From Clostridia bacterium (GTDB lineage: Bacteria; Bacillota; Clostridia; UMGS1810), in NCBI GenBank assembly GCA_045530725.1, contig JAZSCT010000034.1:7396-71395 (forward strand): DNA of 64,000 nucleotides. The letters run 5' to 3'. The notes under the pieces are model-generated. The model had not been told where the DNA came from and made no database searches. It was given only the letters and a program-made list of their open reading frames with translations. Made by a program: the position numbers and the translations under genes. Below, piece after piece: positions 32,855 through 63,615 of this stretch. How positions within the stretch are numbered: the stretch's first letter is position 1; every line of letters starts with the position of its first letter.

Positions 32855-33366
32855 TTAATTCGTCTCCATATGGATTTTGATTGAAAAAATTTGTCTCCTG
32901 TCATAAAACCGCAAAATACATAAACAGCAAAAGATAAAATAGTATTATATAAACAATGAGGTAATATAACATACAAAAAGGAATAGGAAAAATCTCCCAG
33001 ACCCCACATGGTAAACTGTGTATAAAAGTACAGAGACTGATACAGAATACCAGATACAAAAACAAAAATTGCGTTTACAAGTATTGTGGGATAAAAATAT
33101 TTATCTTTAAAAACAGAAATGAGAAAAACAGTATATAGTGTAATAAGCCCGTTAATCCCGAATGTCTGCATAAGAGAGAAATCTTTACTAAGTCCCGCAA
33201 CAACACCAAAAACAAGTGCTCCGAAGCGGTTTTCTTTCAGGGCCACATATACTGAAAGTACAAACACGGGGTCAGGCAAAATACCAAAAATCCTTATACT
33301 GCTCCCAAGTACTGTCTGAAAAATATACAGGAATATTAATAGCGAATAATATTTAACCCATTTCAT
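32851..33366 (-). CDS. mreD: rod shape-determining protein MreD
   Basis: 171-aa highly hydrophobic ORF lying between mreC and PBP2. Confidence 0.75.
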   Translation of the reverse strand: MKWVKYYSLLIFLYIFQTVLGSSIRIFGILPDPVFVLSVYVALKENRFGALVFGVVAGLSKDFSLMQTFGINGLITLYTVFLISVFKDKYFYPTILVNAIFVFVSGILYQSLYFYTQFTMWGLGDFSYSFLYVILPHCLYNTILSFAVYVFCGFMTGDKFFQSKSIWRRIK

Positions 33367-33381
33367 AATATAACCTCTTCA

Positions 33382-34224
33382 CTATTCCTCTTCATTTGCT
33401 TTGTTTCCAACGATAACAAAAACTTCGCCAATTTCATCAAAATTAACAGAAGTTTTAACAATAGCAATCTGGCTCATTCCGTCAGAAGATTTGCGGATTT
33501 CCGAAACCTTGCCAATATGAATTCCCTTAGGATAAAGTCCGCCAAGACCGCTTGTAACAACATCGTCCCCTACAATTACAGCAGAAGACAAAGTAAGATA
33601 GGACATCTTTAAACTGAAAGAATTTTTAAGAGATATATCTCCGCTGCATATGCCGTTTGCACGGATTCTGTCTATCTGGGAAGATACAGATCCTGAAGGA
33701 TCAAGGATAGTCTTCGCTTTTGACCAGTTGTACCCTACTTCATATATGTAACCTACAAGGCCATCATTGGTAATAACCGCATCGTTCACTTTGACTGAGT
33801 CTGAAGACCCGCAATCAAGAGTGAATACAGAAAACCAGTTATCAGCATCTCCTGAAATAATATTTGCAGAGACCATAATCCTATCTGTGTCTTTTTGTTT
33901 GAGAGAAAGCATTGCTCTGAGTCTCTCGTTTTCACTCTTTATCTCATTTATCTCACGTGCTTCGGAGTTCAGAACTGAAATCTGCTCTTTTAGTTTTGAA
34001 TTTTCTTCATCAAGATTCCCTATATTTAATACAAAATCCACTCCGTCACCTATTGTATCAACAACTCCGCCAAGAAGTTTCTGGACCGGAGTGATGATCA
34101 CTCCGAATACATTGCCTGTAAAATCCAGTACACCTTTTGGCAAAGTGGATAAAGCCATAAGAATAACAAGAACAAATGTGGTAATAAACATAAATAAACT
34201 GGTTTTATTTTTTAAAAAATTCAT
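33382..34224 (-). CDS. mreC: rod shape-determining protein MreC
   Basis: N-terminal TM segment, a coiled coil (NSKLKEQISVLNSEAREINEIKSENERLRAML) and C-terminal beta domains (VVTSGLGGLYPKGIHIGKV). Confidence 0.88.
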   Translation of the reverse strand: MNFLKNKTSLFMFITTFVLVILMALSTLPKGVLDFTGNVFGVIITPVQKLLGGVVDTIGDGVDFVLNIGNLDEENSKLKEQISVLNSEAREINEIKSENERLRAMLSLKQKDTDRIMVSANIISGDADNWFSVFTLDCGSSDSVKVNDAVITNDGLVGYIYEVGYNWSKAKTILDPSGSVSSQIDRIRANGICSGDISLKNSFSLKMSYLTLSSAVIVGDDVVTSGLGGLYPKGIHIGKVSEIRKSSDGMSQIAIVKTSVNFDEIGEVFVIVGNKANEEE

Positions 34225-34245
34225 ATCACATCGTCAGCCTTTCAA

Positions 34246-35247
34246 TTATTTGAGACCGAAATCACGTCTTACAAAATCAAATTCATCCAAAAGTTTGCCT
34301 GTACCCAGTATAACTGCCTCTTTAGGATTTTCTGATAGAAATACTTTCATACCTGTTTTCGAACTTAAATATGTGCACATTCCGTTTATAAGGCTACCGC
34401 CACCACAAAGAACAATACCTTTGTCAAGTATATCTGCAGAAAGTTCAGGTGGAGTATTTTCAAGAGTTTCTTTAATAACATCTACAATACGTTCACAGAT
34501 AGGATGTACACACTCGCTGATTTCCTTAGCATTCACCATTACTGACTTCGGAAGTCCTGTAATAGTGTCTCTGCCTTTTACTTCCAAAGATTTATCTTCA
34601 GGATTTTCGCTTAGTGAACAAAGTTCGATTTTAATAGATTCGGCGCTTGCCTCTCCTATATATACACGATATTTCCGTTTGATATACTGCATAATCGCTC
34701 TGTCAAAGTCATTACCGCCTACTCTGAGTGAAGTGCTTGACACAATACCGTTAAGGGAAATAACAGACGCCTCGCTTGTCCCTGCACCGATATCCACAAT
34801 CATATTTGCAACAGGTTCTTCTACAGGCAATCCTATTCCGATAGCAGCAGCCATTGGTTCATCAACAATCAGCACTTCCCTTGCTCCTGCCTGAAGAATG
34901 GCTTCTTCTATTGCCTTCTTTTCTACAGGACTTGCATCATAAGGTGTACATGCGATAACCCTGGGCTTTACAACACCTTTTTTTGTAAGTGCTTTTTTTA
35001 TAAAATACGAAAGCATCTCTTCTGTTGCATCAAAATCAGATATTACACCACTTTTTAAAGGTTCAACAGATGTGATATTCTTCGGAGTTTTGCCCATCAT
35101 CTCACGGGCATTATTGCCTATGGCAATTATACCCTTAGAATCGTTGTCAACCACGACACAGGTAGGTTCTGAAAGAACAACTCCTTTAGAGCGGATATAT
35201 ATCATTGTGTTGTCTGTACCTAAATCAATTCCAATATCCTTACGCAT
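34246..35247 (-). CDS. mreB: rod shape-determining protein MreB
   Basis: Actin-fold motifs IGIDLGTDNT, VDIGAGTSE and LCGGGSLI. Confidence 0.93.
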   Translation of the reverse strand: MRKDIGIDLGTDNTMIYIRSKGVVLSEPTCVVVDNDSKGIIAIGNNAREMMGKTPKNITSVEPLKSGVISDFDATEEMLSYFIKKALTKKGVVKPRVIACTPYDASPVEKKAIEEAILQAGAREVLIVDEPMAAAIGIGLPVEEPVANMIVDIGAGTSEASVISLNGIVSSTSLRVGGNDFDRAIMQYIKRKYRVYIGEASAESIKIELCSLSENPEDKSLEVKGRDTITGLPKSVMVNAKEISECVHPICERIVDVIKETLENTPPELSADILDKGIVLCGGGSLINGMCTYLSSKTGMKVFLSENPKEAVILGTGKLLDEFDFVRRDFGLK

Positions 35248-35263
35248 ATCTAAATCTCCCTGA

Positions 35264-35860
35264 TTATTTTTTAGTTATTAAATCAAAATCAAATTTATCT
35301 TTCATAAGTTTTATGAGTTTATCAAGCGGCAATCCCACAACATTGTAATAATCCCCGTCTATTCTTTCCACAAAGGCACCTGATACTCCCTGAATTGCAT
35401 AACCGCCTGCTTTGTCATATGGTTCATCAGTCAGTATATATTCTCTAATCTGTAAATCAGAAAGCGTTTTGAAATACACCTTTGTGCACTCAAAATCCGT
35501 CTCTGCGCGACCTGTCTTTGTGTCAAAAACACAAATCCCTGAATATACCCTGTGTTCATTACCTGAAAGACTCTTTATAATGCTGAATGCTTCATCTTCA
35601 GTTTTAGGTTTTCCCAAAAATCTGCCCTCATATTCAACTATGGTATCAGAACCTATCACAAGATAGTCGCCGTGCAATTGACGTGCTGTATGAGTTGCTT
35701 TAAGCAAAGCAAGTTCTGAAACATATAGTTCAGGTGCAACACATTTAGGAACAATCGATTCATCTGCATCACTTACAACTATTTTAAACTTTACCCCTGC
35801 ATCTTCGAGAATTTCCTTTCTTCTCGGAGATTTGGATGCAAGAACAACTTTTTTCATCAA
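35264..35860 (-). CDS. maf: Maf-like nucleoside triphosphate pyrophosphatase
   Basis: LASKSPRRKEIL, IGSDTIV, YDKAGGYAIQG. Confidence 0.9.
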   Translation of the reverse strand: MMKKVVLASKSPRRKEILEDAGVKFKIVVSDADESIVPKCVAPELYVSELALLKATHTARQLHGDYLVIGSDTIVEYEGRFLGKPKTEDEAFSIIKSLSGNEHRVYSGICVFDTKTGRAETDFECTKVYFKTLSDLQIREYILTDEPYDKAGGYAIQGVSGAFVERIDGDYYNVVGLPLDKLIKLMKDKFDFDLITKK

Positions 35861-35861
35861 A

Positions 35862-36362
35862 TCAAATCCTTCTTATCCTATTTATCACTACAGATGCTAT
35901 TGCCCCTGTAAAGATGCCTGTGACAACACTTATTAAAGATAAATAAGAGAAATAATATATCATATTGAAACTTCCTGATATAACCATTGCCATAACAACC
36001 TGACAAAGGTTGTGAAAAAACGCACCTGCAACGGAAACACCTATACAGGACACCTTATCAGCACATATTGTTTTTATAATATGCATGGAAAATACGCTTA
36101 TTATTGCTGCAGGAAGGGAATACAACAAAGATGACATCCCTGAATACAGTAACCCTGTAAAGACCGTCCTTGAAACATTTACAGCCAATGCAGTCTTAAA
36201 ATCAAACAGATACAAAACAACCAGGCATACAATGTTTGATATGCCGATTTTTGATCCCGGAAGCACATTGAAATTCAAAAAATTTGCCTCAAGAATTCCA
36301 AAAACAATTCCAAGAGCAGTCATAATTGCAGAAAATGTAATGGTTTTTGCTTTATTCATCAA
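35862..36362 (-). CDS. Gx transporter family membrane protein (Hpre_diP_synt_I-like)
   Basis: 166-aa ORF with 5 TM helices. Has the family-typical pairing with a NusG_II-domain gene immediately upstream. Confidence 0.6.
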   Translation of the reverse strand: MMNKAKTITFSAIMTALGIVFGILEANFLNFNVLPGSKIGISNIVCLVVLYLFDFKTALAVNVSRTVFTGLLYSGMSSLLYSLPAAIISVFSMHIIKTICADKVSCIGVSVAGAFFHNLCQVVMAMVISGSFNMIYYFSYLSLISVVTGIFTGAIASVVINRIRRI

Positions 36363-36739
36363 TATGTAACTGCATCGGGGTTATCCCCGTCTCCTACAAT
36401 CTCAATAACAAGTCTGTGAGGCAGACAGACTAATGATTGTCCTGGTTTATAAATTGGTTTGTCCTGTATTTCGACCTTTTGTACACAGTCAGAATATGTA
36501 ACAGATACGCCATCTTTTGTGATAAGAATATGGTTTTCGCCATATTCATTATCTATTTTTATCACTTCGTCATCGGACACCATAGACAAATCAATCTTTC
36601 TTATTTCCTGTCCATTTACTTTTATAACACAGATACCCTTATCTGCATTATCTGAAAACGATGATGAAAAAATGAGACCTATTCCGCACAAAAGTGCCAA
36701 AGCAATTATTATAACATCAAAAATCTTAATTTTTTTCAT
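36359..36739 (-). CDS. NusG domain II-containing (DUF1312-like) membrane-anchored protein
   Basis: Start taken at ATG 36739 (MKKIKIFDVIIIALALL). One TM segment, then a beta-rich domain ending VCLPHRLVIEIVG. 4-nt overlap with the downstream gene. Confidence 0.55.
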   Translation of the reverse strand: MKKIKIFDVIIIALALLCGIGLIFSSSFSDNADKGICVIKVNGQEIRKIDLSMVSDDEVIKIDNEYGENHILITKDGVSVTYSDCVQKVEIQDKPIYKPGQSLVCLPHRLVIEIVGDGDNPDAVTY

Positions 36740-38843
36740 ATTCAAGAACACCTCTGTATAAATGACCTCTTGTGTATTCAAAGGTTGCTTTCTGACCTTT
36801 TGAATACATAGATATAATTTCCCTCACGGTGTTTTTATCTTCGGTGGTAAATACAAGTCTGATGGCAGAAACGCCTGTTTTCTCTATTTCATTAAGTCTG
36901 TCTCCCATATACACGGGAGCGCTGTTATAGACAGTATTCGTGCAGTTGAATTTCCTTGACATAACTGGGAATTCTTTACCCTTTCTGTCGAAAACCGAAA
37001 AGAACTTTCTGTCTTTACAGTTACATTTACCGTAATGTGTCTTAACAAGACAGTTTTCACTTGTCATAAGGGAAAGCCTACCGTATGCAATAATTTCTGT
37101 ATCAACAAGAGAATTTAAGAAGCCTATCTGCCTTAAATTCATCTCAGGAGAAAGCACAACTGATTTAAAGTTAAATTTGCCATAGTAATTACAGGACAAT
37201 GAATTGGTAATATTAAGTCCATCATCGCCATAGAGAGTCTTTCCTTCACACAATTTAAGGTGACCTATATTGGAGATAGAAACACAATCCACACCCGACA
37301 AATCTATTTTATCAGCAAACTTGTCCCTGATAATCACAGGAAGAGAAACAACAAGTCTGTCTTTGTGTAAAAGATAATATTCTCTGTCAAGGATGAATTC
37401 TTCATATTCAAGGAATATCTTCTTGATTTCATTTACTTTAAGACATTCATTGAACTGTTCCCGTGTATTTACTTTGGCTCTTATTTCAAATGTTTTTGGT
37501 TGATTCTTTGAAGTTTTATAAGAAAATTCACCCTGTGACTCATTTCTTTTTAATTTTGTAATATTATTTTCAAGTATTTCTGTACAATATCTTCTTGCAT
37601 AATTGAAATCTTTTACAGGCACAAATGCATTATCATCAAAGTCTGCTTCAAGAGATTCAAGATAAAAGAAAGTATCTCCAAGTTTACTTATGGCTGAATG
37701 TATCTTATCATAAGTCAAAGGTGCATTTTGTGCAATAGAAACCTTGTCGTCCAAAGTGATCTCTGATACATTTTCATCATCAAGCCACATTCTGAGCATC
37801 AGTGGTTCTCCTACTTTTGCTCTTAAATGTGCATACACAGGTCTTCTTCTTTTCTCTCCCATCTTTGAGCATCTGTCAAGAAGTTCCTTTGGTATATTCT
37901 TATATACATCATCATTGTTCGATGAAATATTGACCATATGTGTACCTTTGTTGTCATCAAAATATCCTTCAGTAAATCCCGAACGGGAGAAAATCTTCTC
38001 TGCATCAAGATATTGTTCTTTAGAAATACCCTTTCCCTCTTTAAGTCCTGAATACATATCAGTAACAAAGGAAACATACTGACTGTTCTTCATTCTTCCT
38101 TCTATTTTTAGAGATTTCACTCCTGCTTTTTTGAGGAGTTCATATTTATTTGCAAGACAAAGGTCCCTGAGACTGAAAAGATATGAAGGATTCTTTGAAA
38201 TATTTCCATCATAGTCTCTGAATCTGAAAGGCAGTCTGCAAGGCTGAGCGCACTCACCTCTGTTTCCGCTTCTCTGCCCTATTACACTTGACATAAGACA
38301 TTGTCCCGAATAACACACGCAAAGTGCCCCGTGAACAAACATTTCGATTTCTGCATCGGTGTTTTTGCATATATTCTCAATCTCGCCAAAAGATAATTCC
38401 CTCGATAATACAACTCTTTCAAATCCTTCATCATAAAGGATATTTACACCATCAAGAGAATGTATGGTCATTTGTGTACTTGCATGAAGTTTAAGGTCGG
38501 GAAAGTATTTCTTTGCAATTTCGGATACTGCCATATCCTGAATAATGATCGCATCGACACCAGAGTTGTATATATCCTTTAAAAATAAAAACAAATCCTC
38601 TATTTCTTCATCAAAAACAAGAGTATTTACAGTAATATATACTTTAGAGCCGGACAAGTGAGCATAGTTAATTGCTTCTTTTATTTCGTCCAAGGAAAAA
38701 TTTGTTGCGTTTTTTCTTGCACCAAAGTTTTTGCCACCAAGATAAACTGCATCTGCTCCATTATCGACGGCACGTTTAAATGTATCAAGATCTCCTGCAG
38801 GAGATAAGATTTCTATATCTTTAGAATTCATATTATTAAGCAC
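36726..38843 (-). CDS. U32 family peptidase-like protein (PrtC/RlhA/TrhP family)
   Basis: N-terminus is ..EILSPAGDLDTFKRAVDNGADAVYLGG, followed by a Cys cluster HGALCVCYSGQCLMS...CAQPCR. The start may instead be ATG 38831. Confidence 0.85.
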   Translation of the reverse strand: MLNNMNSKDIEILSPAGDLDTFKRAVDNGADAVYLGGKNFGARKNATNFSLDEIKEAINYAHLSGSKVYITVNTLVFDEEIEDLFLFLKDIYNSGVDAIIIQDMAVSEIAKKYFPDLKLHASTQMTIHSLDGVNILYDEGFERVVLSRELSFGEIENICKNTDAEIEMFVHGALCVCYSGQCLMSSVIGQRSGNRGECAQPCRLPFRFRDYDGNISKNPSYLFSLRDLCLANKYELLKKAGVKSLKIEGRMKNSQYVSFVTDMYSGLKEGKGISKEQYLDAEKIFSRSGFTEGYFDDNKGTHMVNISSNNDDVYKNIPKELLDRCSKMGEKRRRPVYAHLRAKVGEPLMLRMWLDDENVSEITLDDKVSIAQNAPLTYDKIHSAISKLGDTFFYLESLEADFDDNAFVPVKDFNYARRYCTEILENNITKLKRNESQGEFSYKTSKNQPKTFEIRAKVNTREQFNECLKVNEIKKIFLEYEEFILDREYYLLHKDRLVVSLPVIIRDKFADKIDLSGVDCVSISNIGHLKLCEGKTLYGDDGLNITNSLSCNYYGKFNFKSVVLSPEMNLRQIGFLNSLVDTEIIAYGRLSLMTSENCLVKTHYGKCNCKDRKFFSVFDRKGKEFPVMSRKFNCTNTVYNSAPVYMGDRLNEIEKTGVSAIRLVFTTEDKNTVREIISMYSKGQKATFEYTRGHLYRGVLEYEKN

Positions 38844-47784: not shown

Positions 47785-48058
47785 AAAAGCCGTACGATTG
47801 AAAATCGAAATACCGTCATCGCACGCTTTCTTATAAAACGACTCAGACCAAGCGACCTTGTGTCACATACAGAAAACTGCTTACGGCTGCTTGGTTCCCC
47901 ACCTGACCGGGTTCACAATCACCATATTGCACAAGACTTGATCATCAACACCGTCTCATAAGTGCTGCTACAATGAAGATAATCCTCAAATCAATCATCA
48001 CCCTTGCTATAGCGGGTTGCAAGTTCAGGGCACCGCTACCGCCCCGGTTGTACGACTG
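47785..48058 (-). ncRNA. ffs: signal recognition particle RNA, long Bacillus-type with Alu domain
   Basis: The minus strand reads ...GGCGGTAGCGGTGCCCTGAACTTGCAACCCGCTATAGCA (Alu domain) and CCCGGTCAGGTGGGGAACCAAGCAGCCGTAAGC. The latter is domain IV with a GGAA tetraloop and a compensatory UGG/CCA stem. The 5' AGUCGUAC pairs with the 3' GUACGGCU, followed by UUUUU. Conserved position upstream of dnaX. Ends accurate to about 5 nt. Confidence 0.85.
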
Positions 48059-53261: not shown

Positions 53262-55019
53262 CTATTTGATTTCATTTGCCATATTATAGAAGTTATAATA
53301 CATACCTTTTTTTAAAAGGAGTTCATCGTGAGTGCCTTCTTCTACAATGCCATCTTCAGTAAGCACAAGTATTCTGTCAGAATTTTTGATGCTTGAAAGT
53401 CTGTGTGCTATAGTAAGGGAAGTTCTGCCTTTAGCAAGTTCAGAAAGGGATTTTGCAACAAGGTATTCACTCTCATTATCAAGGGCACTTGTGGCTTCGT
53501 CAAGGATAAGTATTTCGGGGTTTTTGAGAAAAACTCTGGCAATACTGATACGTTGTTTCTGACCGCCTGAAAGTTTGACTCCCCTCTCCCCTACATATGT
53601 GTCGTATCCATCTTTTAAATCGCATATAAATTCGTGTGCACCTGCTTTTTTTGCCGCTTCTATCACTTCATCATATGTGGAATCTGATTTTCCATAGGAG
53701 ATATTTTCATATACTGTTCCCGAAAAAAGATACACATCCTGCTGAACCACACCTATAGATTGTCTCAATGACTTAAGAGAAATCTTTCTTATATCTATAC
53801 CGTCAAGTGTAATCACACCATTTGTAGTATCAAAAAATCTTGGGATAAGATTACAAAGGGTGGTTTTTCCACCGCCTGACGGTCCCACAATAGCCACCTT
53901 TTCTCCAGGATTGATCACAAGATTCAGGTTGGAAAAAACCTTATTGTGATCATCAGGATATTCAAATGACACATCTTTAAACTCTATCTTACCTTCGGGA
54001 TGAGATATATCAATACAGTCCTCATCATCAAATATTTCCACATCAGCATCGATAATTTCTATGAAACGTTCTATACCTGTAATACCCCTCTGGAATTGCT
54101 CTGTAAATTCGATTATACGCCTTATTGTGGCAATAAGAGTGGAAACATACATCACATAGGCTACCATATCACCGGGAAGAATATTTCCATTCATAAGATA
54201 CATACCGCCAAGAAGTACAACTGTAAGATACATAAGACCATCGAATATTCTTGTGGATGTACTGAACTGCCCCATAAGTCTGTAGGATTTCCGCTTGATA
54301 TTCAGAAACTCTATGTTTCCTTTTTCAAATTTTTCATTTTCGATTTCTTCATTTGTAAAGGCTTTTACAACCTTCTGGCCAAGAAGACTGTCCTCTATAT
54401 TGGCATTAAGTTCACCTATCTGAAACCTTTGTCTGGCAAATATACTCTTCATCCTTCTGCTTAGTGCCATACAAACGACAGTCATCAAAGGCACGAAAAG
54501 AAATATAGACACAGTAAGCATAAGGTTTATCCTTGAGAGTATGATAAATGATGCAACAATCTTTATAAAAGCAATGAAGAACTCTTCGGGACAATGATGA
54601 GAAAACTCTGTCACCTCAAAAAGGTCATTGGTGATTCTGCCCATTATCTGCCCTACTTTTGTGTTATTATAGTAACTGACAGACAATTTCTGAAGATGTG
54701 CATAGGCATCCCTTCTCATATCTGTTTCCATCATAGCACCCATTACATGTCCCATATTTGACATATAGTAATTTGAAACAGCGTCTATAACACGTAACAA
54801 AAGATACAACATGGCGAGACTGCCGATAAGTTTTGCAGACAAAAGACCTACATCAATAAGTGCAGTATTTGTAATATGTCTTATAATCATCGGCAATACA
54901 ATTTCACAAAGAGTTGTCAGAAGTGCACAAAACAGGTCAAAAATCAGTATTTTTCTGTAAGGTTTAAAATATGGTAAAAATCTTTTTATCAAATGCGATG
55001 TTGAATATTTATCATTCAT
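53262..55019 (-). CDS. ABC exporter, fused permease/ATPase (MsbA/ABCB type)
   Basis: Six N-terminal TM helices, Walker A GPSGGGKTT, signature LSGGQKQRISIAR, Walker B ILILDEATSALD. A GGAGAT SD lies 6 nt upstream of the ATG, inside the 18-nt gap to the upstream gene. Confidence 0.9.
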   Translation of the reverse strand: MNDKYSTSHLIKRFLPYFKPYRKILIFDLFCALLTTLCEIVLPMIIRHITNTALIDVGLLSAKLIGSLAMLYLLLRVIDAVSNYYMSNMGHVMGAMMETDMRRDAYAHLQKLSVSYYNNTKVGQIMGRITNDLFEVTEFSHHCPEEFFIAFIKIVASFIILSRINLMLTVSIFLFVPLMTVVCMALSRRMKSIFARQRFQIGELNANIEDSLLGQKVVKAFTNEEIENEKFEKGNIEFLNIKRKSYRLMGQFSTSTRIFDGLMYLTVVLLGGMYLMNGNILPGDMVAYVMYVSTLIATIRRIIEFTEQFQRGITGIERFIEIIDADVEIFDDEDCIDISHPEGKIEFKDVSFEYPDDHNKVFSNLNLVINPGEKVAIVGPSGGGKTTLCNLIPRFFDTTNGVITLDGIDIRKISLKSLRQSIGVVQQDVYLFSGTVYENISYGKSDSTYDEVIEAAKKAGAHEFICDLKDGYDTYVGERGVKLSGGQKQRISIARVFLKNPEILILDEATSALDNESEYLVAKSLSELAKGRTSLTIAHRLSSIKNSDRILVLTEDGIVEEGTHDELLLKKGMYYNFYNMANEIK

Positions 55020-55037: not shown

Positions 55038-56252
55038 CTATGACATTCTTCGTTTGAGTACAGATTCAAATTCCTCATATGACATCTCATCAACAGAATC
55101 AATGATTTCTATATTCATGGTTTTTGCTCTGTTTATGATAGTTTCCCTCTGATAAACATCGTTACTGATATATGTGCATATGAGAGCGAGTTTCGAATAT
55201 TCTCCGCCGAACTTTTCTCCAACGGTATAAAGTTCGTAGAGGTCTTCTTTATGAACCTGACCGTTCTTGCAGGAAATAAACACAGGAATATATCCTCTTG
55301 TAAAAACTACATCAAGTTCATTTCTAGTGTCGGTACCGTCGGTTTCGCCTGTAATAATACCATCCCAGTCAACAAATACTCCCACATCCGAGTCATCAAA
55401 AAAACCAGGTTCTTTTTTACATATATTAAATGCAGTAACATATGTATAAAGTTCGAGAATATTCCCTGCTTTAAGCAAACATTGCTTAATCTGTTGATTT
55501 TTGTAGCCAAAGGAGAGATTTTCTCCATCAAATAAATAATCAGTAATAAATCCGTGTTTTGCAAGTTTTCTTAACAAGTCCTCATTAACGGGCTTAAGTT
55601 TTTTGTTGTATTCAAGTTGTGACAGTTTGATTTTTACAATACCATCATATGAAAATGAGGCTGTTTTTTCAAACAGATCAAACATATTTGCCTGAATGTT
55701 CCACTCACGGCAATTGTCTTTGCAGATTTCCCATAGTGTTAGTACATCAGTTCTGAATTCATCATTGAAATCCCATTCGTAGTCAGTTTCAGTATTTTTG
55801 ATTACAGAGCCGCCATTCATCTTCACACATTCGTCTATAGAAAGTCCTTTGTCATCTTCACAAACAATGTTGTCGCTATTCTTCACTCTAATAAGATTTC
55901 CCGTTCTTATATTAAACTGAACCATGGGAATATCTCTTGTAACAGACAGTTCTCCCATAGCAGCAAGTACCAGTTCCTTACCGCCTGTAAGGTCAAATAC
56001 ACAGTCCTTATTATCGGCTACAATTTCATCAAGAGCACAGTAAATCTTTTCATAATCATATCTTGAAACTTTTCTAAATTCAAGAACAATGTGAGGATTT
56101 CTTCCACAAAGAACATTCTTAAGATCATTAATGCGTTTATCCCTCATTACTTTGTCAAAACCTACAAAGATAATCTTTTCGGGATTAAGTTTAAGCCCTG
56201 CTATGATATTCTGTATCTGACAGGTATCAAATAATTCTATCAATGTTTTCAT
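55038..56252 (-). CDS. Card1/Can2-like protein: CARF-like N-domain + PD-(D/E)xK nuclease-fold C-domain (DUF1887-like)
   Basis: Start taken at ATG 56252 (MKTLIELFDTCQIQNIIAGLKLNPEKIIFVGF). Carries DLTGGKELVLAAMG, and a C-terminal GNILELYTY / VFVDWDG / NELDVVF / VFISCKNG motif series. Family assignment rests on remembered family features, not on a search. Confidence 0.55.
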   Translation of the reverse strand: MKTLIELFDTCQIQNIIAGLKLNPEKIIFVGFDKVMRDKRINDLKNVLCGRNPHIVLEFRKVSRYDYEKIYCALDEIVADNKDCVFDLTGGKELVLAAMGELSVTRDIPMVQFNIRTGNLIRVKNSDNIVCEDDKGLSIDECVKMNGGSVIKNTETDYEWDFNDEFRTDVLTLWEICKDNCREWNIQANMFDLFEKTASFSYDGIVKIKLSQLEYNKKLKPVNEDLLRKLAKHGFITDYLFDGENLSFGYKNQQIKQCLLKAGNILELYTYVTAFNICKKEPGFFDDSDVGVFVDWDGIITGETDGTDTRNELDVVFTRGYIPVFISCKNGQVHKEDLYELYTVGEKFGGEYSKLALICTYISNDVYQRETIINRAKTMNIEIIDSVDEMSYEEFESVLKRRMS

Positions 56253-56348
56253 ATATAACGCCTTCTTTTGTATATTATTATCAAGTATATCATATATTGC
56301 GGGTTTAATGCAACAAAAAGCAAGTGAATGAATTATAAAACATTTCAT

Positions 56349-56388
56349 AAAAAAGGAGATATAAACAATTTACATATTTACATCTCCT
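56349..56388 (-). terminator. possible terminator after the small membrane coiled-coil gene
   Basis: 7-bp stem AGGAGAT/ATCTCCT with a long 21-nt loop, then 6 U on the minus strand. Confidence 0.4.
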
Positions 56389-56412: not shown

Positions 56413-56736
56413 TTAGTCTGACTCCAAAGTGCTTTCTGCCTTTTCGATGTTCAACTGTGCTTTCTTCTCTTCTTCGTAGAATTTCTTCACATTATCCATC
56501 TGTATATTCATTGAATCCACAGTTTCGGATAGTTTTTTATTTTCCTTCTTTAACTGATGAATTTCATCCTTTAGTGCTTTTATTTCTTCGGTTTCGTTAA
56601 ACTCCGCATTGTATATTAGAAAAAAACTCAACGCAAAAGATAAAGCGAATATAACTGCATATTTAAGAAAACCAACAAGCCACATTCTCAGATTGTAGGC
56701 TTTGGTATGTTCAGAAAAAAAGTTATAATAATTCAT
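56413..56736 (-). CDS. small membrane-anchored coiled-coil protein, unknown function
   Basis: 107 aa with one TM helix (WLVGFLKYAVIFALSFALSFFLIY), then the heptad-like EEIKALKDEIHQLKKENKKLSETV. A GGAGAT SD overlaps the addA stop. Confidence 0.6.
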   Translation of the reverse strand: MNYYNFFSEHTKAYNLRMWLVGFLKYAVIFALSFALSFFLIYNAEFNETEEIKALKDEIHQLKKENKKLSETVDSMNIQMDNVKKFYEEEKKAQLNIEKAESTLESD

Positions 56737-56750
56737 AGTTTAATCTCCTG

Positions 56751-59700
56751 TCAGATTTTGATAATTTTGTTACAGTTCAAAAGGCAAATATAGCATTCGT
56801 CACAGTCTTTACCCGTGATTTCACAAATAGCATCTTTATAAAGAAGAATCTGATTTTTGTAATTTGCCCTGATTTTATCTTCATCATCTGTTTTGTCTGT
56901 CTTGTAATCAACCAGAGTATAGTTTCCTCTTTCGTTTTCAAAAAACAGATCCACCGTACCCTGAATGACTATTGTTTCGTCACTATCTTCAAAGTGTTCC
57001 GAGACTTCTTTTGCACTTTTGAGCACCTTGAACGGAAACTCTCTGTAAACAGACGGGCTTTTTAAAATTCTCCGTCCCAAATCACTTTTTAAAAATTCCA
57101 CAACAGATTCAGCATCTACAAGTTTCATATCATCTTCTGTAAAGAAATTCTTTTCTGCCATTTTCTCCATAAATGACTTAACATAAGATACAGAAATATC
57201 CTCACAAAAATCAATATGTTTAAGCACAAGATGAGTTATTGTTCCCTTTCTTGCATGAGAATCCTTCACATCTTTTTTTCTTTCTCTTATAGGTGGGATT
57301 GAATAGTATGAATAGTCTTCATCATTTTCAAGTCTGTTGTAAAACTCTTTAAGTTCCGTTACGGTAAATGCAGTCGGAATGTCATTTGTATATCCTGGAT
57401 AAACATATGTAAATCTTTTGTAAATATCAGATGATGTAAGCGAAGTATCGTCCTCTTCCCCCATATTAAGCATTGTTTTTGCATCAAAGGATGCATCATC
57501 CATATAAGCATCCGAGATGTCAAGTGTGTGTGAGTCGATGATACTTAACTTAAATGCAGTATCTTCAGTTCTGTATTCACCAACATAAGTAGGATTATCC
57601 TTCTCTATATATAGTACGCTCGGTATAATCCAGTCAAAGAAACACTTGGCTCCTAAAAGTATATCCTGAGGGAACGGTTTATCATATGAGGCATACACAT
57701 CATATTTTGCCAGAGTTTTGTATGCATCAGGAATACACCCTACCATTATAAGTTTTTCTCTGGCTCTTGTCAATGCAACATAAAGAACTCTCTCCTCTTC
57801 GGATATTCTTTCATTGTTTATAATTTCCTTAATTGAAGTGAAGGAAATAAGCGGATAAGAAAAGTGGCTTGTAATATCAGAATACTTAAGTCCGATACCC
57901 AGTTTTTTGTGCAAGAGAAAATCTCCTCTTTCTTCAAAAGGATTAAACTGCCTTGCACATCTTGCAAGAATTACAACAGGAAATTCAAGTCCTTTGCTCT
58001 TGTGGATAGACATTATTCTTACTACATTTTCCGATTCGTCTATAAGAGATGCTGAGGGAGAATCCTTTTTTCCACGAAGGTTTTCGTTGATAAAATGAAT
58101 GAAATTAAATATTCCCTTAAAATCCGTATTGCCGAATTCTTCTGCTCTCTTTATAAAAAGTCTTACATTAGCCAAAGCCTGTCCCGGAATTTCAAGGGAC
58201 ATAACATACTCATTGAAGTTAGTTTCATCAATAAGATAATTCAAAAAGTCAACTGTGGAGAGAAGTTTTGACTGAGTTCTTAACTTTTCAAGTAATTTAA
58301 GAAAATTACTTATCTTAAGTCCGAGAGCGTCTTTGTATGTGGATTCATAAAGTCTCATAGCATTTATGAAGTAGTCGTTTTTGTCACAAAGACGGATTTT
58401 CATAAATTCGTTTTCGTCAAAATCAAATATGCTGAGCCTTAAAGCACTAATTAGTTCAATGTCATCAAGAGGATTAAGTACCACCTTGATCACCGAAATA
58501 AGAGAAGAAATCTCCTCGGAATAAAGATATCCCTCATTGTAGTCGGTAAACACAGGTATGGAATACATTTTGAGAATATCTGTATAAACCTGCACATGTC
58601 CTTTAAGACTGCTCATAAGGACGGCAATATCCGAATACTTTATTTCTCTGAATCCTTTTTCCTTGTCAAATACCAGTTCTTTTGAATCGATAATCTGGCG
58701 AATCTTTTTTGCAATATAAATTGCCTCTGCGCTGTCAACAGTAAGTGCTTCTTCATCATCAGGGAAGTTTTCCTTTTCGAAGTTAATAATATCCACATCA
58801 ACGGTCTTAAAAAAATCTCTTTCTGTATAAGGCGAGTTTTCGTTATAATACAGATATTCATCCTCGTTGTATGTAAGACCGCCTACATCCTCTGTCATTA
58901 CACATGAAAAAATATGATTTACTGCACCAAGTATTTCACATCTACTGCGGAAGTTTTTGTTCAGAGTGATAAGTGAACAAGGCGAAACATCTGATGCATC
59001 ATATCTTGTATAAGTCTTTTGTTTGGATGTAAAAAGCGACGGATCAGCATCACGGAATCTGTAGATGCTCTGTTTTGGGTCACCAACCATAAAAATATTG
59101 TTTTGCCCCTCTTCCATCCTTGATACAAGAGTAAATATCCTTTCCTGAACATTGTTACAGTCCTGATATTCGTCTATATATATTTCCTCGAAGGATTCTG
59201 AAAGGATCCTGGCATAATCGGTTTTTTTGCCATTTTCATCCATGAGACATTTCAGAGACAAATGCTCATAATCTGAATAATCAACAAGATTTTTCTTAAA
59301 TTTAAGATCAGAAAACTCCACCGAAAAATCACGTACAAGAGAGTATATTGTCTCAATATATGAAGCGGCATTTTTCATCCCTTCCACAAGTTCTTCTTCA
59401 GGAAGTGAAATGATGCTTTTTATACCGTTTAAAAGTTCCTTACCTTCGTTTCTTAAAGAGACCGCTTTCTCAGATATATCGGGATCCATATTTTTGACAT
59501 ATGACTGACTTCTTGTTTTGAACTTAATCCCGCTGAAATATTCATAGGCTTTTGTCCATTCCGAAAGACTTTTAATTCCTTCGTCACAGATATTCATCTC
59601 ATCTGAAAGAAATTCAGACAGCTTCACACCCTCCTTATCAAGATCACACAAAGAAATGGCTTTTTTGTATATGGAAAAAGCCTTCTTTACCATATATGAT

Positions 59701-60329
59701 GCCTTGTTAAGAAGAACATCCTGATATACTTTCACATTGCCGCATCTATACTGATTTACAACCTCATCAAGCCACTTTTCAGGCTCAGGAAAGGACCTTG
59801 AGAAATCATATATCTTAATAATTATATCAATAAGTGCAGAATCGGTTCTTCTTGTGTATGATGAAACAAGTTTCAGAAAGTTACTGTCCCCTGATTCATA
59901 GAATCTTTCAAACACATTGTCTATGGCCTCTTTTTTTATAAGTTCTATTTCTGCAGGGTCACCTGTACGAAACTGCGGATCAAGACCCAGAGTGTTGAAA
60001 TTTGATCTTATAATATCAAGACAGAAACTGTGAATAGTGGAAAAATGCGAATTGGCACTTAATGCAAGTTGCTTTTTGAGTCGGACATCGTCGGGATTCT
60101 CGTTAATTTTTTTCATAATATTTGCATTGATTCTTTCCCTGATTTCCGATGCAGCCGCATTTGTAAAAGTCATCACAAGTATCTTGTCAATGTCACAGCC
60201 ATCTTCATCCATTATACGTCTTATTATTCTTTCTGTCATAACGGCGGTTTTTCCGCTGCCGGCAGACGCACTTACAAGAAGATTGGTTACGGGGGCGCAT
60301 ATAGCGTCAGATTGTTCAGTTGTCCACAT
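56751..60329 (-). CDS. addA: ATP-dependent helicase/nuclease subunit A
   Basis: 1192 aa with UvrD-type Walker A SASAGSGKTAV, DEYQDCN, and a C-terminal RecB-type nuclease (VDLFFE...LVDYKTD). Confidence 0.92.
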   Translation of the reverse strand: MWTTEQSDAICAPVTNLLVSASAGSGKTAVMTERIIRRIMDEDGCDIDKILVMTFTNAAASEIRERINANIMKKINENPDDVRLKKQLALSANSHFSTIHSFCLDIIRSNFNTLGLDPQFRTGDPAEIELIKKEAIDNVFERFYESGDSNFLKLVSSYTRRTDSALIDIIIKIYDFSRSFPEPEKWLDEVVNQYRCGNVKVYQDVLLNKASYMVKKAFSIYKKAISLCDLDKEGVKLSEFLSDEMNICDEGIKSLSEWTKAYEYFSGIKFKTRSQSYVKNMDPDISEKAVSLRNEGKELLNGIKSIISLPEEELVEGMKNAASYIETIYSLVRDFSVEFSDLKFKKNLVDYSDYEHLSLKCLMDENGKKTDYARILSESFEEIYIDEYQDCNNVQERIFTLVSRMEEGQNNIFMVGDPKQSIYRFRDADPSLFTSKQKTYTRYDASDVSPCSLITLNKNFRSRCEILGAVNHIFSCVMTEDVGGLTYNEDEYLYYNENSPYTERDFFKTVDVDIINFEKENFPDDEEALTVDSAEAIYIAKKIRQIIDSKELVFDKEKGFREIKYSDIAVLMSSLKGHVQVYTDILKMYSIPVFTDYNEGYLYSEEISSLISVIKVVLNPLDDIELISALRLSIFDFDENEFMKIRLCDKNDYFINAMRLYESTYKDALGLKISNFLKLLEKLRTQSKLLSTVDFLNYLIDETNFNEYVMSLEIPGQALANVRLFIKRAEEFGNTDFKGIFNFIHFINENLRGKKDSPSASLIDESENVVRIMSIHKSKGLEFPVVILARCARQFNPFEERGDFLLHKKLGIGLKYSDITSHFSYPLISFTSIKEIINNERISEEERVLYVALTRAREKLIMVGCIPDAYKTLAKYDVYASYDKPFPQDILLGAKCFFDWIIPSVLYIEKDNPTYVGEYRTEDTAFKLSIIDSHTLDISDAYMDDASFDAKTMLNMGEEDDTSLTSSDIYKRFTYVYPGYTNDIPTAFTVTELKEFYNRLENDEDYSYYSIPPIRERKKDVKDSHARKGTITHLVLKHIDFCEDISVSYVKSFMEKMAEKNFFTEDDMKLVDAESVVEFLKSDLGRRILKSPSVYREFPFKVLKSAKEVSEHFEDSDETIVIQGTVDLFFENERGNYTLVDYKTDKTDDEDKIRANYKNQILLYKDAICEITGKDCDECYICLLNCNKIIKI

Positions 60330-63300
60330 AATTATCTTCCTCCAGTCTTTCCCATACCGAATCTGCTTTTAAAGTTTCGATATTTCTGAATTTACCTTTG
60401 AATCTGCAAACAGAAGAAAAGTCACAGTATGAACACGAACTGTGAACACCTTTCACATACGGATCTATTGTATATATACCTTCCATAATCCCCTGTGCAA
60501 GTTCAGTTGCCTTCTTCTCCAGATGATTAAACAGAATATAGAATCTGTCCTCCGATGCTGCATTTCTCTTATTGGAATTAAATGTATCAATATCAAAAGC
60601 ATCACCAAGAGAATCCTCCGAAGAGATAAGTCCTTTCAGGGAGTAATGCTTTTCCGTTTCATCCTGAAGTTTTTGGATATCATCGTACTTTTTGCCTAAA
60701 AGGATGAAGTCATTTATCTTAAAATACAATGCACCTGCAGGCCTGTAATCGGGATTTGATCTGGTAAGAGCATCCAGATACACAAAAAGTTGAAAATCAA
60801 GCCCGTAGAAAAGATTTTCAAAAGAAAATTCCTTGTTGTTTGTCTTGTAGTCGATAACTCTTATAAATTCCCCGTCAGGAGTTTTGTAGGAGTCTGCTCT
60901 GTCTATTACTCCTGTGAGTTTCACGGTTTTGCCTGAGTTAAGTTTCAGTTCAACACAACCAAGCCCCTTATCATCAAATCTGATTTCATAACCCAAGGGA
61001 GAAAACCTGGAGTCTGCAATCTGTCTTACAAGATGGATAAAGGATGCACTTAAGGTCTCTTCAAGCCGTGTAATCTTAAATCGCTCTCTTGCTGAAACTC
61101 TGTCTATATCGATTCCCATATCTTTGGTTATTTCTCTGATGTAATAAGCCACTCTTTCTCTGATATAGTTTTCGTCTATACCGGAAAAATGATCAAACTT
61201 TGTCTCTGCTTCTTTGCAAAGCATCTCAAAAACTGCATGAGAAAGCGTACCTATATTTGCAAAATCAATTTCTCTTGTATATCTCGGTTCAAGATTAAGC
61301 ATAAATCTTAAAAAATATGAGAACTTGCATGCTGCAAATTTTTCAAGTCTTGTTACTGTAGTATATAACACATCGGAAAAATACTTATCTTTAACTTCAT
61401 CAGAAAGCATTGCGGGGTTTTCTGACTTAAGAAGTGATCTTTTCAGTATATCTGCTTTTTTGGGATAAATGAGAGATAGAACAGAGAACACCCTCTCCCA
61501 CTTTTTTGTATCTTTTCTGATGCCCTGCAAAACATATTCCCAACTTGTATATGGCGAATTCAGAATAAAGTCTTCGTCATCATCAGAAACATATACAGTA
61601 TCAATCCCCAAATTCCTCTTTATCATAGTGACAACCATTGCTTCACGGGCAGTATCGCCTGTGATTTCTGTGTATGGGTATGATATGTAAAGGGATTTTT
61701 CAGGTATCGTCAGAACAGAATACACAAGAAATCTCTGATAATATATTTCATCAAGACTGTTTTTGATAAATTCTATGTTATACTCTGACAAAACATCCTT
61801 TTCGCCAGTTGTAAAAATACCAAAGGTGGAAGGCTTCTTCGGGAAGGAATTTTCCGTAGCACCAAGCACAAACAAAACCTTCACATTCTTGATTCTGGAA
61901 CGGTCTGCATTGCCCACAGTCACACAATCGGAGGATGTGGGAAGAAGACCTATTGAACTGGAGGTAAATGCTACCTTCAGATAGGTATAAAACTCCTTCG
62001 GATTAATAAGAGTGTCAGAAAGGCCTTCGCTGATTTCATCAAGTATGGAAATGATTTTGTTCCATACAAGAGTTACGGTTTTTGCTTCATCAAGCATTGA
62101 CAATGCTTCGAAGTCTTTTATTTCACTTACAATTTTCTTTTCGAATCCGCTGATTTTCATATAATCATACAAAGCATCACACATTTTTTCTGCAATATGA
62201 CGGCCTTTGATACGATTATGAAATTCTGTGATTGATTTAAGAAACTTATTTCTGGAAGAATTAATAATCTTAAGATACTTTTCGTTTAAGTCCTCTCTTC
62301 TTGAAAACTTGTCCAGTTTATCATTCCATCTTAAATCATTTATCCAGTCGGATTTGTTTATACTCATATTAAGCACATACTCTTCCAGTATATCAATCTC
62401 TTCGTCAGTCATATCAAGAAATCCAAGTCTTAAATAAGAAAAAATGGATTCATAAGAATAACTCTCTGTGTATATCCTCAAAGCACCAAGTACAAACTGA
62501 GCAGGATGAATATCTATAAGCGGTGTTTTTTCGTCTATAAATGTACGAATATTAAATTTTTTGAACACATCGTCTATAATACCTGAATAAGCATCAAGGT
62601 TTGAACATATTACCGCAATATCCTTAAACTTAAATCCTTCATCCCGACACAAAGACAGTATCTTTGATGCGGTATGTTTCACCTCGGATACAGCATCAAA
62701 ATATGAATTGATACTAACATTATTCTCTGTATATCCTACTTTTTCAAAAGAAGAATAGATATTTTTTTCTATGTTATAAAGTGCAGAATCTTTTTTGTGA
62801 CGCATATTTTCGCCTAAAAACTGACTTTTGTGCACTTTGATTCCGTTTTTGGCTGCTCCATCGATAAGTTTTGAAGAAGTGATTATGGATGGAGAAAAGA
62901 AAGAGAATCTGCTCTCTTTTGTATAGTTTAATACGTCAGTACACAAAGACACCGTTACTTCCTTGGCGGATTTTGATATTTCAAAAATCACATCAAGTTC
63001 CGGTGGGATAAAACTTGAAAATTCATCAAAAAAAACATAAGCCCCATCAAAAAATCCTGACGTACCTATCATACCTCTTACACTTGTAAGAAGGTCAGTA
63101 GAATCAGTATATTTTTCTTTGAGGATATTCTGATATGAAGAGTATATTTCTGCTATATCAGACAACTTTTCTTTTGTCATCTGATTTGAAATATTATCCT
63201 TAAGTTTAAGTATGTCATCAGGAAAAACACAATACTTTTTAAAACCTGTGATCATATCATTCATCAATGACACAAAACCTTCATTGGAAGACATCCTTGA

Positions 63301-63615
63301 ATACAGTTTGAGATTGCCAGAATTAATTGCCTTGCTCATAAGGACAGAACGCACAGTATCACTTATAACGTCACAAACAGATTCTCCCGATTCTTCATAA
63401 ACTCTTTGTATAATTCTTTCAAAACTGATTACCTGACAGGATAATGGCGAAATACTGCCGATTATATCCATAATTTTTCTTTCGGTCATATGAGTAAACT
63501 GTTCGGGCACACAAAGAAAAACCTTTTTTCCGCTATGGACAAGGCTTCTGATATTCTGATAGATATTATAACTTTTTCCGCTTCCTGCTCTTCCGTACAA
63601 GATCTTAAGTCCCAT
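60316..63615 (-). CDS. addB: ATP-dependent helicase/nuclease subunit B
   Basis: 1099 aa with GRAGSGKS, a C-terminal nuclease (VIDRAD...VIDYKTN), and Fe-S cysteines CSYCDFSSVC. 14-nt overlap with addA. Confidence 0.9.
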   Translation of the reverse strand: MGLKILYGRAGSGKSYNIYQNIRSLVHSGKKVFLCVPEQFTHMTERKIMDIIGSISPLSCQVISFERIIQRVYEESGESVCDVISDTVRSVLMSKAINSGNLKLYSRMSSNEGFVSLMNDMITGFKKYCVFPDDILKLKDNISNQMTKEKLSDIAEIYSSYQNILKEKYTDSTDLLTSVRGMIGTSGFFDGAYVFFDEFSSFIPPELDVIFEISKSAKEVTVSLCTDVLNYTKESRFSFFSPSIITSSKLIDGAAKNGIKVHKSQFLGENMRHKKDSALYNIEKNIYSSFEKVGYTENNVSINSYFDAVSEVKHTASKILSLCRDEGFKFKDIAVICSNLDAYSGIIDDVFKKFNIRTFIDEKTPLIDIHPAQFVLGALRIYTESYSYESIFSYLRLGFLDMTDEEIDILEEYVLNMSINKSDWINDLRWNDKLDKFSRREDLNEKYLKIINSSRNKFLKSITEFHNRIKGRHIAEKMCDALYDYMKISGFEKKIVSEIKDFEALSMLDEAKTVTLVWNKIISILDEISEGLSDTLINPKEFYTYLKVAFTSSSIGLLPTSSDCVTVGNADRSRIKNVKVLFVLGATENSFPKKPSTFGIFTTGEKDVLSEYNIEFIKNSLDEIYYQRFLVYSVLTIPEKSLYISYPYTEITGDTAREAMVVTMIKRNLGIDTVYVSDDDEDFILNSPYTSWEYVLQGIRKDTKKWERVFSVLSLIYPKKADILKRSLLKSENPAMLSDEVKDKYFSDVLYTTVTRLEKFAACKFSYFLRFMLNLEPRYTREIDFANIGTLSHAVFEMLCKEAETKFDHFSGIDENYIRERVAYYIREITKDMGIDIDRVSARERFKITRLEETLSASFIHLVRQIADSRFSPLGYEIRFDDKGLGCVELKLNSGKTVKLTGVIDRADSYKTPDGEFIRVIDYKTNNKEFSFENLFYGLDFQLFVYLDALTRSNPDYRPAGALYFKINDFILLGKKYDDIQKLQDETEKHYSLKGLISSEDSLGDAFDIDTFNSNKRNAASEDRFYILFNHLEKKATELAQGIMEGIYTIDPYVKGVHSSCSYCDFSSVCRFKGKFRNIETLKADSVWERLEEDNYVDN

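Follow-up and report, generated by a model that had tools for sequence, protein, structure and literature searches.

The 64-kb window considered here, i.e., the whole stretch of 64,000 nucleotides analyzed from contig JAZSCT010000034.1 of a Clostridia bacterium, is housekeeping DNA throughout (glycogen genes, mreBCD-PBP-Maf, tRNA synthetases, TrmD, topoisomerase IV, and AddAB) and carries on its minus strand a gene for a 404-amino-acid (aa) protein with a predicted N-terminal CARF domain and C-terminal PD-(D/E)xK fold. The protein belongs to a distinct, large clade of the Can2/Card1 (DUF1887, CARF4/Crf4) family, hereafter S-C-K after the Ser-Cys-Lys motif of its catalytic center. A previous sequence-only reading had reported the open reading frame (ORF) without assigning it a strand; the ORF is real, and the peptides quoted for it (LIELFDTCQIQN..., DLTGGKELVLAAMG, GNILELYTY, VFVDWDG, NELDVVF, and VFISCKNG) are all present in its product. 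The positions of the features are given in Table 1.

The 404-aa product starts at the ATG at position 56252. This start is preferred over a longer, 436-aa reading from position 56348, which is unlikely because its ATG falls within the T-tail of a terminator-like hairpin (56354-56388), whereas the shorter product is preceded by an AAGAAGG ribosome-binding site and begins with the family-conserved N terminus MKTLIELFD. An exact-sequence lookup of the 404-aa product returned no match. The gene is probably cotranscribed with that of the ABC exporter located immediately downstream.

The gene stands alone in the window, as the sequence-only reading had maintained. We found in the 64 kb no CRISPR (clustered regularly interspaced short palindromic repeat) array and no homologue of Cas10, Cmr1/3/4/6, Cas6, reverse transcriptase-Cas1 (RT-Cas1), Cas13d, or CorA, and no type III locus of the cyclic oligoadenylate (cOA)-producing kind lies in or near the gene within these limits. 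Besides the 404-aa protein, PADLOC gave only generic matches among those listed (25 of 62 families). An mCpol or other cyclase partner was rejected because no such gene, nor any other ORF with a GGDD/GGDE palm, is present in the window or recurs near the homologues, unlinked ones included. This differs from Panoptes (mCpol plus a CARF-transmembrane effector), a CRISPR-independent signaling system with a CARF effector encoded elsewhere than in CRISPR loci (PMC13577387).

Fold and family assignment

The PADLOC model CARF4--CARF_PDDEXK matched residues 1 to 401 of the 404-aa protein (E=1.1e-41), while the Pfam model PF09002 (Card1_endonuc) matched aa 260 to 385 with 25.3 bits, just below its gathering score of 26.4 bits. 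The profile check proposed in the sequence-only reading thus came out positive for the CARF4 model and short of the threshold for PF09002, a precomputed match to which is present in many homologues of the protein. NCBIfam and a single-sequence phmmer search against the PDB gave no match. An AlphaFold2 (AF2) model built from 27 homologues was confident (predicted local distance difference test, 89.8; predicted template modeling score, 0.86), and Foldseek aligned it over its full length (~410 columns) to, in ranked order, VC1899 (1XMX, E=9e-22), SthCan2 (7BDV, E=5e-20), Cdn1 (9U49), Card1 (6XL1, E=1.5e-17; 6WXW), and TbrCan2, with template modeling (TM) scores for VC1899, Can2, Cdn1, and Card1 ranging from 0.62 to 0.80. 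The PADLOC profile, the confident AF2 model, and the full-length Foldseek matches together establish the modeled two-domain Can2/Card1 architecture, a CARF domain at the N terminus with a PD-(D/E)xK fold at the C terminus in one chain within the family's ~350- to 440-aa size range, as had been proposed from the letters of the sequence.

With the Can2/Card1 proteins of known structure (SthCan2 7BDV, TsuCard1 6WXW/6XL1, TbrCan2 8Q3Y) the S-C-K protein has in common the N-terminal CARF domain, a helical/beta insertion, and the C-terminal PD-(D/E)xK fold (TM 0.6 to 0.8 over ~410 columns), with a sequence identity of 13 to 20%. Cdn1 (9U49/8Z4I), a DUF1887 ribonuclease that is turned on by cyclic tetra-adenylate (cA4) or cyclic hexa-adenylate (cA6) and whose locus, a conventional type III-B one, includes Csm6, shares this fold (TM 0.72). 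The best structural match is VC1899 of Vibrio cholerae, the founding DUF1887 member (TM 0.74/0.78), an orphan CARF protein that has no type III CRISPR association, lacks the cA4 contacts, and is not regulated by cA4 (PMC7969007). The window protein resembles it in these terms, i.e., a Can2 fold, no CRISPR system in 64 kb, and unconserved cA4 contacts; its orphan status, correctly noted for the window by the sequence-only reading, is therefore not unprecedented. Stand-alone DUF1887 proteins such as VC1899 are already known, and the family already figures at NCBI, under the name "DUF1887 family protein," and among the CARF4 models of PADLOC.

Catalytic center and CARF pocket

Alignment of the family profile to the PDB sequences placed S327 on the Glu of Can2 "VIECK" and VC1899 "IIECK" and the N311-E312-L-D314 motif on Can2 "NELD," which contains the active-site residues E276 and D278 (PMC7969007). 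In Cdn1, E274, D310, E323, and K325 were reported to stabilize the active-site Mg2+ (PMC12825302); their counterparts in the 404-aa protein are E267, D314, S327, and K329. Of the complete catalytic set of the fold (helix Glu, [N]E-x-D, and E-x-K), E267, E312, D314, and K329 are hence present, and the Glu of E-x-K is replaced by Ser327. The claims that a Ser occupies the catalytic-acid position and that relatives of the Can2/VC1899 type have E-C-K there were both upheld by this alignment.

The replacement is a property of the whole clade. Ser was found at position 327 in all 143 readable family representatives, Glu (E-C-K) in none, and E267, W296, N311, E312, D314, S327, C328, K329, N330, and G331 were unchanged in 82 of 82 aligned members, down to ~30% identity. 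The helix Glu, N-E-x-D, and the Lys are thus common to Can2/Card1 and the S-C-K family, which differs from the former by the Ser and by an additional D-W-D-G motif, whose D295 and D297 would lie about four residues from the catalytic pair by strand-register reasoning. Restriction endonucleases of the Cfr10I/NgoMIV type, active enzymes of the PD-(D/E)xK fold with an S-x-K motif, draw a compensating Glu from a downstream helix. The equivalent candidate here, E340, was rejected because it is not conserved, 27 of the 75 unlinked members having Lys instead. D295 and D297 are further candidates for a compensating acid, and none can be assigned in the S-C-K family.

The invariance of the Ser and of the remaining catalytic residues across the family indicates a center that has been remodeled yet kept under selection, not one that has decayed. 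The suggestion in the sequence-only reading of a mechanistic variant as opposed to a standard nuclease therefore pointed in the right direction. A dead pseudo-nuclease, in which the E-to-S change abolishes metal binding and leaves only a ligand sensor, sponge, or scaffold, appears improbable to us, as invariance of E267, E312, D314, K329, and the Ser across ~700 clusters and down to 30% identity is unexpected for a dead site and active S-x-K enzymes exist that recruit the acid from elsewhere in the fold. What speaks for it is that the Glu of ExK, a Mg2+-holding residue in Cdn1 (E323; PMC12825302), is absent clade-wide and that VC1899 was essentially inactive in vitro (PMC7969007).

The CARF pocket, although strongly conserved within the family, also departs from that of Can2. 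The residues of SthCan2 that contact cA4 are S19, T42, K99, and Y118 (PMC7969007), and in a weak profile alignment (i-Evalue 0.0026) these fall on D9, ~G31/F32, E93, and Q112 of the 404-aa protein, none of the contacts being conserved in the S-C-K family. Conserved family-wide instead are E6, D9, N15, G31, D87, G90, and G91. All 82 aligned members have an acidic residue (Asp or Glu) at position 93, a charge reversal compared to K99 of Can2 and R96 of VC1899. Position 92 is acidic in 92 of 150 representatives; a minority sub-lineage, which includes the window protein, has Lys there (11 of the 150 representatives; 35 of the 82 members of the locus set). VC1899 and the 404-aa protein both have Asp at the Can2 S19 position, but E-C-K is intact in VC1899, which also has a basic residue (Arg96) where Can2 has K99; the S-C-K clade has neither, and the window protein is for this reason assigned to another lineage. 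VC1899 moreover represents a single proteobacterial lineage, in contrast to the large S-C-K clade of Clostridia with its recurrent CorA links.

In the Cas10 enzymes that synthesize S-adenosyl methionine-AMP (SAM-AMP), Chi et al. described the replacement of basic or neutral residues by D70 and E151, which accommodates the cationic methionine moiety (PMC10600005). Because the acidic CARF pocket of the S-C-K family parallels this argument, a ligand derived from SAM would seem to suit it better than cA4. The cA4-type ligand assumed by the sequence-only reading is not supported, given that the Can2 contacts are unconserved and that CRISPR-linked family members occur only in loci of the CorA/SAM-AMP type, as described below.

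CorA-linked relatives and proposed role

CRISPR-linked relatives were detected by a k-mer scan for periodic repeats followed by PADLOC annotation and phmmer. The scan flagged three loci with genuine CRISPR arrays ~0.1 to 1.9 kb from the homologue, and the annotation and phmmer revealed CorA in five genome loci (L033, L050, L063, L065, and L090). Two further independent cases (L102 and L136) came from a reverse scan, which started from the CorA proteins of linked loci, was run into metagenomes, and returned 80 CorA loci. Altogether, seven independent CRISPR loci hold a family member, and all seven encode CorA (Table 1): six belong to type III-B and have Cmr genes, a Cas10 being in view in five of them, and one, L065, combines Cas13d with CorA. 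In these seven loci, as opposed to the window, the S-C-K gene is operonic with corA and cmr genes, with intergenic gaps of 9 to 30 nt where genes adjoin. L065 has in addition a stand-alone CARF2 gene; the locus amounts to a type VI-D system bearing a signaling-type accessory module. The linked members are scattered over the whole neighbor-joining tree, with those of L033 and L050 (40 to 42% identity) within the half of the window protein. Among the tracked pocket positions, the L033 and window proteins differ only at 32 (Tyr in the former, Phe in the latter) and at 92.

The Cas10 proteins of these loci bear the signature of SAM-AMP synthases, i.e., short, no HD domain, equivalents of D70/E151, and GGDD, the D70/E151 criterion being taken from BfrCas10 (PMC10600005). 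All five have Asp and Glu in the columns of D70 and E151 of PDB 9LQ5_B, and the four that are full length are short, with 492 to 618 aa; that of L063 is cut by the contig end. No family member was seen in a type III locus without CorA among the loci examined. As CorA was reported in only 53 of 1113 type III loci (PMC11229360), its exclusive association with the three to four independently ascertained linked members is very unlikely to be due to chance (roughly 1e-4 or less).

This exclusive context bears on whether the S-C-K proteins are simply ordinary cA4-activated Can2/Card1 nucleases serving a cOA-producing type III system elsewhere in the genome. They have the fold and domain order of Can2/Card1, and trans-encoded effectors have been suggested for type III systems (PMC11229360); the finding would be an ordinary one if the family were a plain trans-acting Can2. 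We regard this as very improbable: the cA4 contacts are unconserved, with an acidic residue at the K99 position, Ser stands in place of the catalytic Glu, and the linked loci always have CorA and are never of the CorA-less cOA type.

Of the sensors of the SAM-AMP branch of type III CRISPR signaling, only CorA has been described so far, and the need of this branch for a degrading enzyme is still unexplained (PMC10600005, PMC12255297). The 2025 CRISPR classification considers the SAM-AMP pathway components incompletely characterized and the exceptions a potential source of new sensors or nucleases (PMC12669027). In the searchable literature, the partners of CorA are NrN, DEDD, SAM-AMP lyase, Csm6-2, and a toxin-antitoxin module, with no Can2/Crf4-type protein placed among them. 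A DHH/NrN, DEDD, or lyase candidate was sought in all seven linked loci, and none was found. NrN, DEDD, and SAM-AMP lyase have the same genomic position as the linked S-C-K genes (operonic with corA in type III-B loci with a D70/E151 Cas10); their folds are unrelated to that of the S-C-K protein and they have no sensor domain. From the acidic CARF pocket and the lack of these degraders in the linked loci, we infer that the S-C-K protein may itself bind or degrade SAM-AMP.

Our preferred interpretation, to which we assign a probability of about 45%, is that the S-C-K protein is a phosphodiesterase under CARF control that descends from the SAM-AMP/CorA branch of type III signaling, may still serve that branch, and is unlinked from it in the window. 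The ligand of its CARF dimer would be a small adenylate signal that carries a cationic moiety, SAM-AMP or a close relative being likelier than cA4, and ligand binding would control a remodeled metal-dependent phosphodiesterase center formed by E267, E312, D314, S327, and K329. This center could cut either the signal, in which case the protein would be an NrN-like switch for CorA systems, or nucleic acid, in which case it would be a second effector. Since the window gene is unlinked within 64 kb, is surrounded by housekeeping DNA, and belongs to the K92 sub-lineage, never found in a CRISPR locus, it would either act in trans with a CorA/type III-B locus elsewhere or have been exapted to a CRISPR-independent signal.

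The CorA-only CRISPR context, the charge-reversed pocket, and the remodeled invariant catalytic center make the S-C-K protein a concrete candidate for another SAM-AMP sensor besides CorA or for a fourth class of switch in this pathway. What appears to be new is the family-wide S-C-K center with D-W-D-G, the charge-reversed pocket, and the exclusive CorA/SAM-AMP-type CRISPR association. The broader proposal that the clade constitutes the first CARF-family receptor for SAM-AMP or a SAM-derived nucleotide, with a Ser-Lys-rebuilt site and most copies, that of the window included, escaped to become chromosomal sensors, is in our view unlikely. If it is true, SAM-AMP-type signaling would operate in trans over long genomic distances or the signal would have a CRISPR-independent source, and the protein could be the missing degrader or regulator that explains the CorA cassettes without NrN, DEDD, or lyase. 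It is a possibility that the degrader of such cassettes is encoded in trans.

Several observations weigh against a SAM-AMP/CorA phosphodiesterase. With a metal-binding carboxylate gone, catalysis could be reduced or absent, and the pocket mapping comes from the weak profile alignment mentioned above. Of the 30 loci flanked by at least 8 kb on both sides, only 2 showed CRISPR/CorA linkage, and of the 54 for which at least 8 kb was available on one side, 5 did; in just 2 of the 80 CorA loci of the reverse scan was a family member present. Members of the K92 sub-lineage were CRISPR-linked in 0 of 35 cases versus 6 of 38 for those with an acidic position 92 (Fisher p=0.026, uncorrected for phylogeny). 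L065 joins CorA and the S-C-K gene to Cas13d with no Cas10 in 18 kb, and some CorA clades have been proposed to use cA6, not SAM-AMP (PMC11229360). There is no defense-island signal either, the 132 immediate neighbors of unlinked members giving only sporadic or generic PADLOC matches. Finally, many CorA cassettes that lack an S-C-K gene likewise have no adjacent NrN, DEDD, or SAM-AMP lyase; for that reason, neither a strict mutual exclusivity of S-C-K with these degraders nor a substitution of NrN or lyase by S-C-K can be claimed.

Some of these observations would be expected if the clade had left the CRISPR loci to become a CRISPR-independent sensor of an endogenous or stress nucleotide, partnered by the ABC exporter or other membrane proteins, which we consider a serious but rather unlikely alternative. 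The CRISPR-linked share of the family amounts to ~7 to 9%, the remaining ~91 to 93% residing among housekeeping genes; defense-island signal and phage or plasmid copies are missing; and K92 is a derived pocket change confined to unlinked members. The S-C-K-ABC exporter pair stays together at identities as low as 63% although the genes upstream have been rearranged, other membrane proteins recur as tight partners, e.g., the transmembrane protein of neighbor cluster 3 in both tree halves, and VC1899 provides the precedent of an orphan not regulated by cA4. On the other hand, the window pocket is otherwise that of the CRISPR-linked L033 and L050 proteins, no conserved non-CRISPR cyclase or synthase partner was found, the patchy distribution (~150 species matches in gut Clostridia) resembles that of an accessory and not of a core gene, and ABC exporters are frequent chance neighbors.

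Two groups of CorA loci from the scans deserve mention. In human-gut metagenome contigs L104 to L132, many type III-B CorA cassettes are flanked by housekeeping genes, in the arrangement DUF362/CorA-Cmr1-6/LysS-GreA, and have no NrN, DEDD, or SAM-AMP lyase beside them, even though immunity reportedly requires a degrader. In L156 to L171, CorA is followed by a conserved, unannotated 774-aa protein, next to long CRISPR arrays, with no Cmr genes and, in some of the loci, RT-Cas1. The 774-aa protein may be a compact type VI-like or other CorA-paired effector; VI-B systems with CorA offer a comparison (PMC11662929).

Distribution and neighborhood

The 404-aa protein has 494 word-indexed homologues, and the S-C-K family comprises 712 clusters at E<=1e-30 in the representative library. 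The exact motifs occur in at least 150 species-level genomes, all of Clostridia from the gut or rumen (Oscillospiraceae, Acutalibacteraceae, Ruminococcus), almost all of them metagenome-assembled. A family of ~700 clusters, mostly orphan genes of uncultured gut and rumen Clostridia, makes a good case for CARF roles outside CRISPR. No relatives were found in 50,697 phage and 72,556 plasmid records, on which ground a phage or plasmid origin and an anti-CRISPR role were dismissed.

Table 1. Positions of the features in the window and in loci of homologues (L and P numbers are our handles for loci and proteins)
Feature	Position	Strand	Remark
Gene for 404-aa CARF + PD-(D/E)xK-fold protein, S-C-K clade of Can2/Card1/DUF1887 family	55038..56252	minus	Stop codon included
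Ribosome-binding site AAGAAGG	56261..56267	minus	8 nt 5' of ATG 56252
Terminator-like hairpin, 14-bp stem + T-run	56354..56388	minus	Between addB-addA-107-aa unit and S-C-K gene
N-terminal CARF (Rossmann-like) domain, ~aa 1-125	55878..56252	minus	AF2 beta-alpha repeats at 3-113; aligns with Can2 CARF residues 17-134
E6-L-F-D9, end of CARF strand beta1	56226..56237	minus	D9 aligns with Can2 S19; VC1899 likewise Asp
CARF glycine loop D87-L-T-G-G-K92-E93	55974..55994	minus	E93 aligns with Can2 K99
C-terminal PD-(D/E)xK-fold domain, ~aa 256-404	55041..55487	minus	PF09002, Foldseek, AF2 alpha-beta-beta-beta-alpha-beta core
E267, helix Glu of GNILELY; invariant	55452..55454	minus	Motif correspondence to Cdn1 E274
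D295-W-D297-G, end of strand beta1; family-specific, nearly invariant	55359..55370	minus	Can2 and VC1899 without the motif
N311-E312-L-D314; invariant	55311..55322	minus	Equivalent to Can2 active-site E276/D278
S327-C328-K329; Ser in place of metal-binding Glu of (D/E)xK; invariant across family	55266..55274	minus	
ABC exporter, 585 aa (ABC_membrane + ABC_tran)	53262..55019	minus	18 nt downstream of S-C-K gene, same strand
107-aa ORF	56413-56736	minus	14 nt after addA
AddA	56751-60329		Window neighbor
AddB	60316-63615		Window neighbor
Peptidase_U32-Maf-MreBCD-PBP-MGS block	window 29541-38843; L002 276-9832		
Large signal recognition particle RNA	47790-48055	minus	
tRNA-Gly(GCC)	26251-26325	minus	
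Linked loci, type III-B	L033 and L050		PGA_cap then SCK-Cmr1-Cas10-Cmr3-4-5-6-CorA(-Cas6) then HlyD
Linked locus, type III-B	L063		Cas10-Cmr3-6-CorA-Cas6-RT-Cas1-array-SCK
Linked locus, type III-B	L090		Cas6-Cmr1-Cas10-Cmr3-6-CorA-SCK-arrays
Linked locus, type III-B	L102		SCK-Cmr1-Cas10-Cmr3-6-CorA-RT-Cas1-Cas6; metagenome reverse scan
Linked locus, type III-B	L136		SCK-CorA-Cmr1; metagenome reverse scan
Linked locus, Cas13d	L065 292-9714		Cas13d-array-CorA-SCK-CARF2 (stand-alone CARF2, 212 aa, E=1.8e-54)
CorA then 774-aa protein	e.g., L167 10001-13845		
vWA-like + Tubulin_2/FtsZ-like pair	L002 14274-20101; L011 11290-17169; L056 5912-11510; L098 9169-11814 and downstream; L138		
~600-750 aa membrane protein	L026 11218-13395; L054 3143-4936; L055 11250-12998; L053 11333-13147; L002 8057-9892; L018 8045-9862		
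AAA+ protein	L002 11259-14045; L013; L041 7518-9665		ClpP gene next in L002, L013
S-C-K fusion proteins	P0095, P0111 (L008/L009 10001-12100); P0205		

Among the neighbors of the window gene, the sequence-only reading had singled out addAB and the ABC exporter, both of which are indeed present. As a functional clue, addAB did not hold up: its adjacency is confined to the window and a 99%-identical strain, with other genes upstream at 83% and 63% identity, and is incidental, being lost at 83% identity and interrupted by the terminator-like hairpin between the two units. That the protein is a DNA-repair or end-processing accessory of AddAB, as its position 0.5 kb downstream of addB-addA on the same strand might have suggested, is on these grounds effectively refuted. 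The exporter gene, in contrast, stays 18 to 19 nt downstream at 83% and 63% identity despite the upstream change and is the sole neighbor that the closest relatives (99%, 83%, and 63% identity) retain.

In 50%-identical relatives, the S-C-K gene is flanked by the Peptidase_U32-Maf-MreBCD-PBP-MGS block, which in the window is ~16 to 25 kb distant from it; this suggests that the gene has long been resident in the chromosome, with rearrangement, and was not recently acquired.

Clustering of the neighbors at 87 loci revealed no universally conserved partner, the best cluster covering 13 loci. Several proteins nevertheless recur near the S-C-K gene. A membrane protein of ~600 to 750 aa, with N-terminal transmembrane helices, a Rossmann-like GxGxxG, and a sub-threshold RyR-like C terminus (E=3e-4), is encoded right next to the S-C-K protein in one half of the family tree as well as in the other, at gaps of 15 to 21 nt in three loci; after CorA, it may be a second membrane partner that recurs. 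In at least three lineages, a vWA-like transmembrane protein (~700 to 880 aa) and a Tubulin_2/FtsZ-like protein (PF13809, ~1200 aa) are encoded downstream of the S-C-K gene, at a distance of one to four genes; this pair is not covered by any PADLOC model, and a similar one directly follows CorA in two type III-B loci. An AAA+ protein of 694 to 715 aa (AAA plus AAA_lid_6, weak IetA-like PADLOC matches) is encoded 15 to 32 nt after the S-C-K gene in L002, L013, and L041. The S-C-K protein also occurs in fusions, in which the C terminus carries either a metallo-beta-lactamase fold (PF00753; 699 aa) or a TPR array (833 aa).

Of the remaining features of the window, the 107-aa ORF located between addA and the terminator-like hairpin, which it just precedes, encodes an N-terminal transmembrane helix and a coiled coil, has no family match, and is conserved in the 99%-identical strain only. 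The bacterial large signal recognition particle RNA (154.6 bits) and the tRNA-Gly(GCC) are both ordinary.

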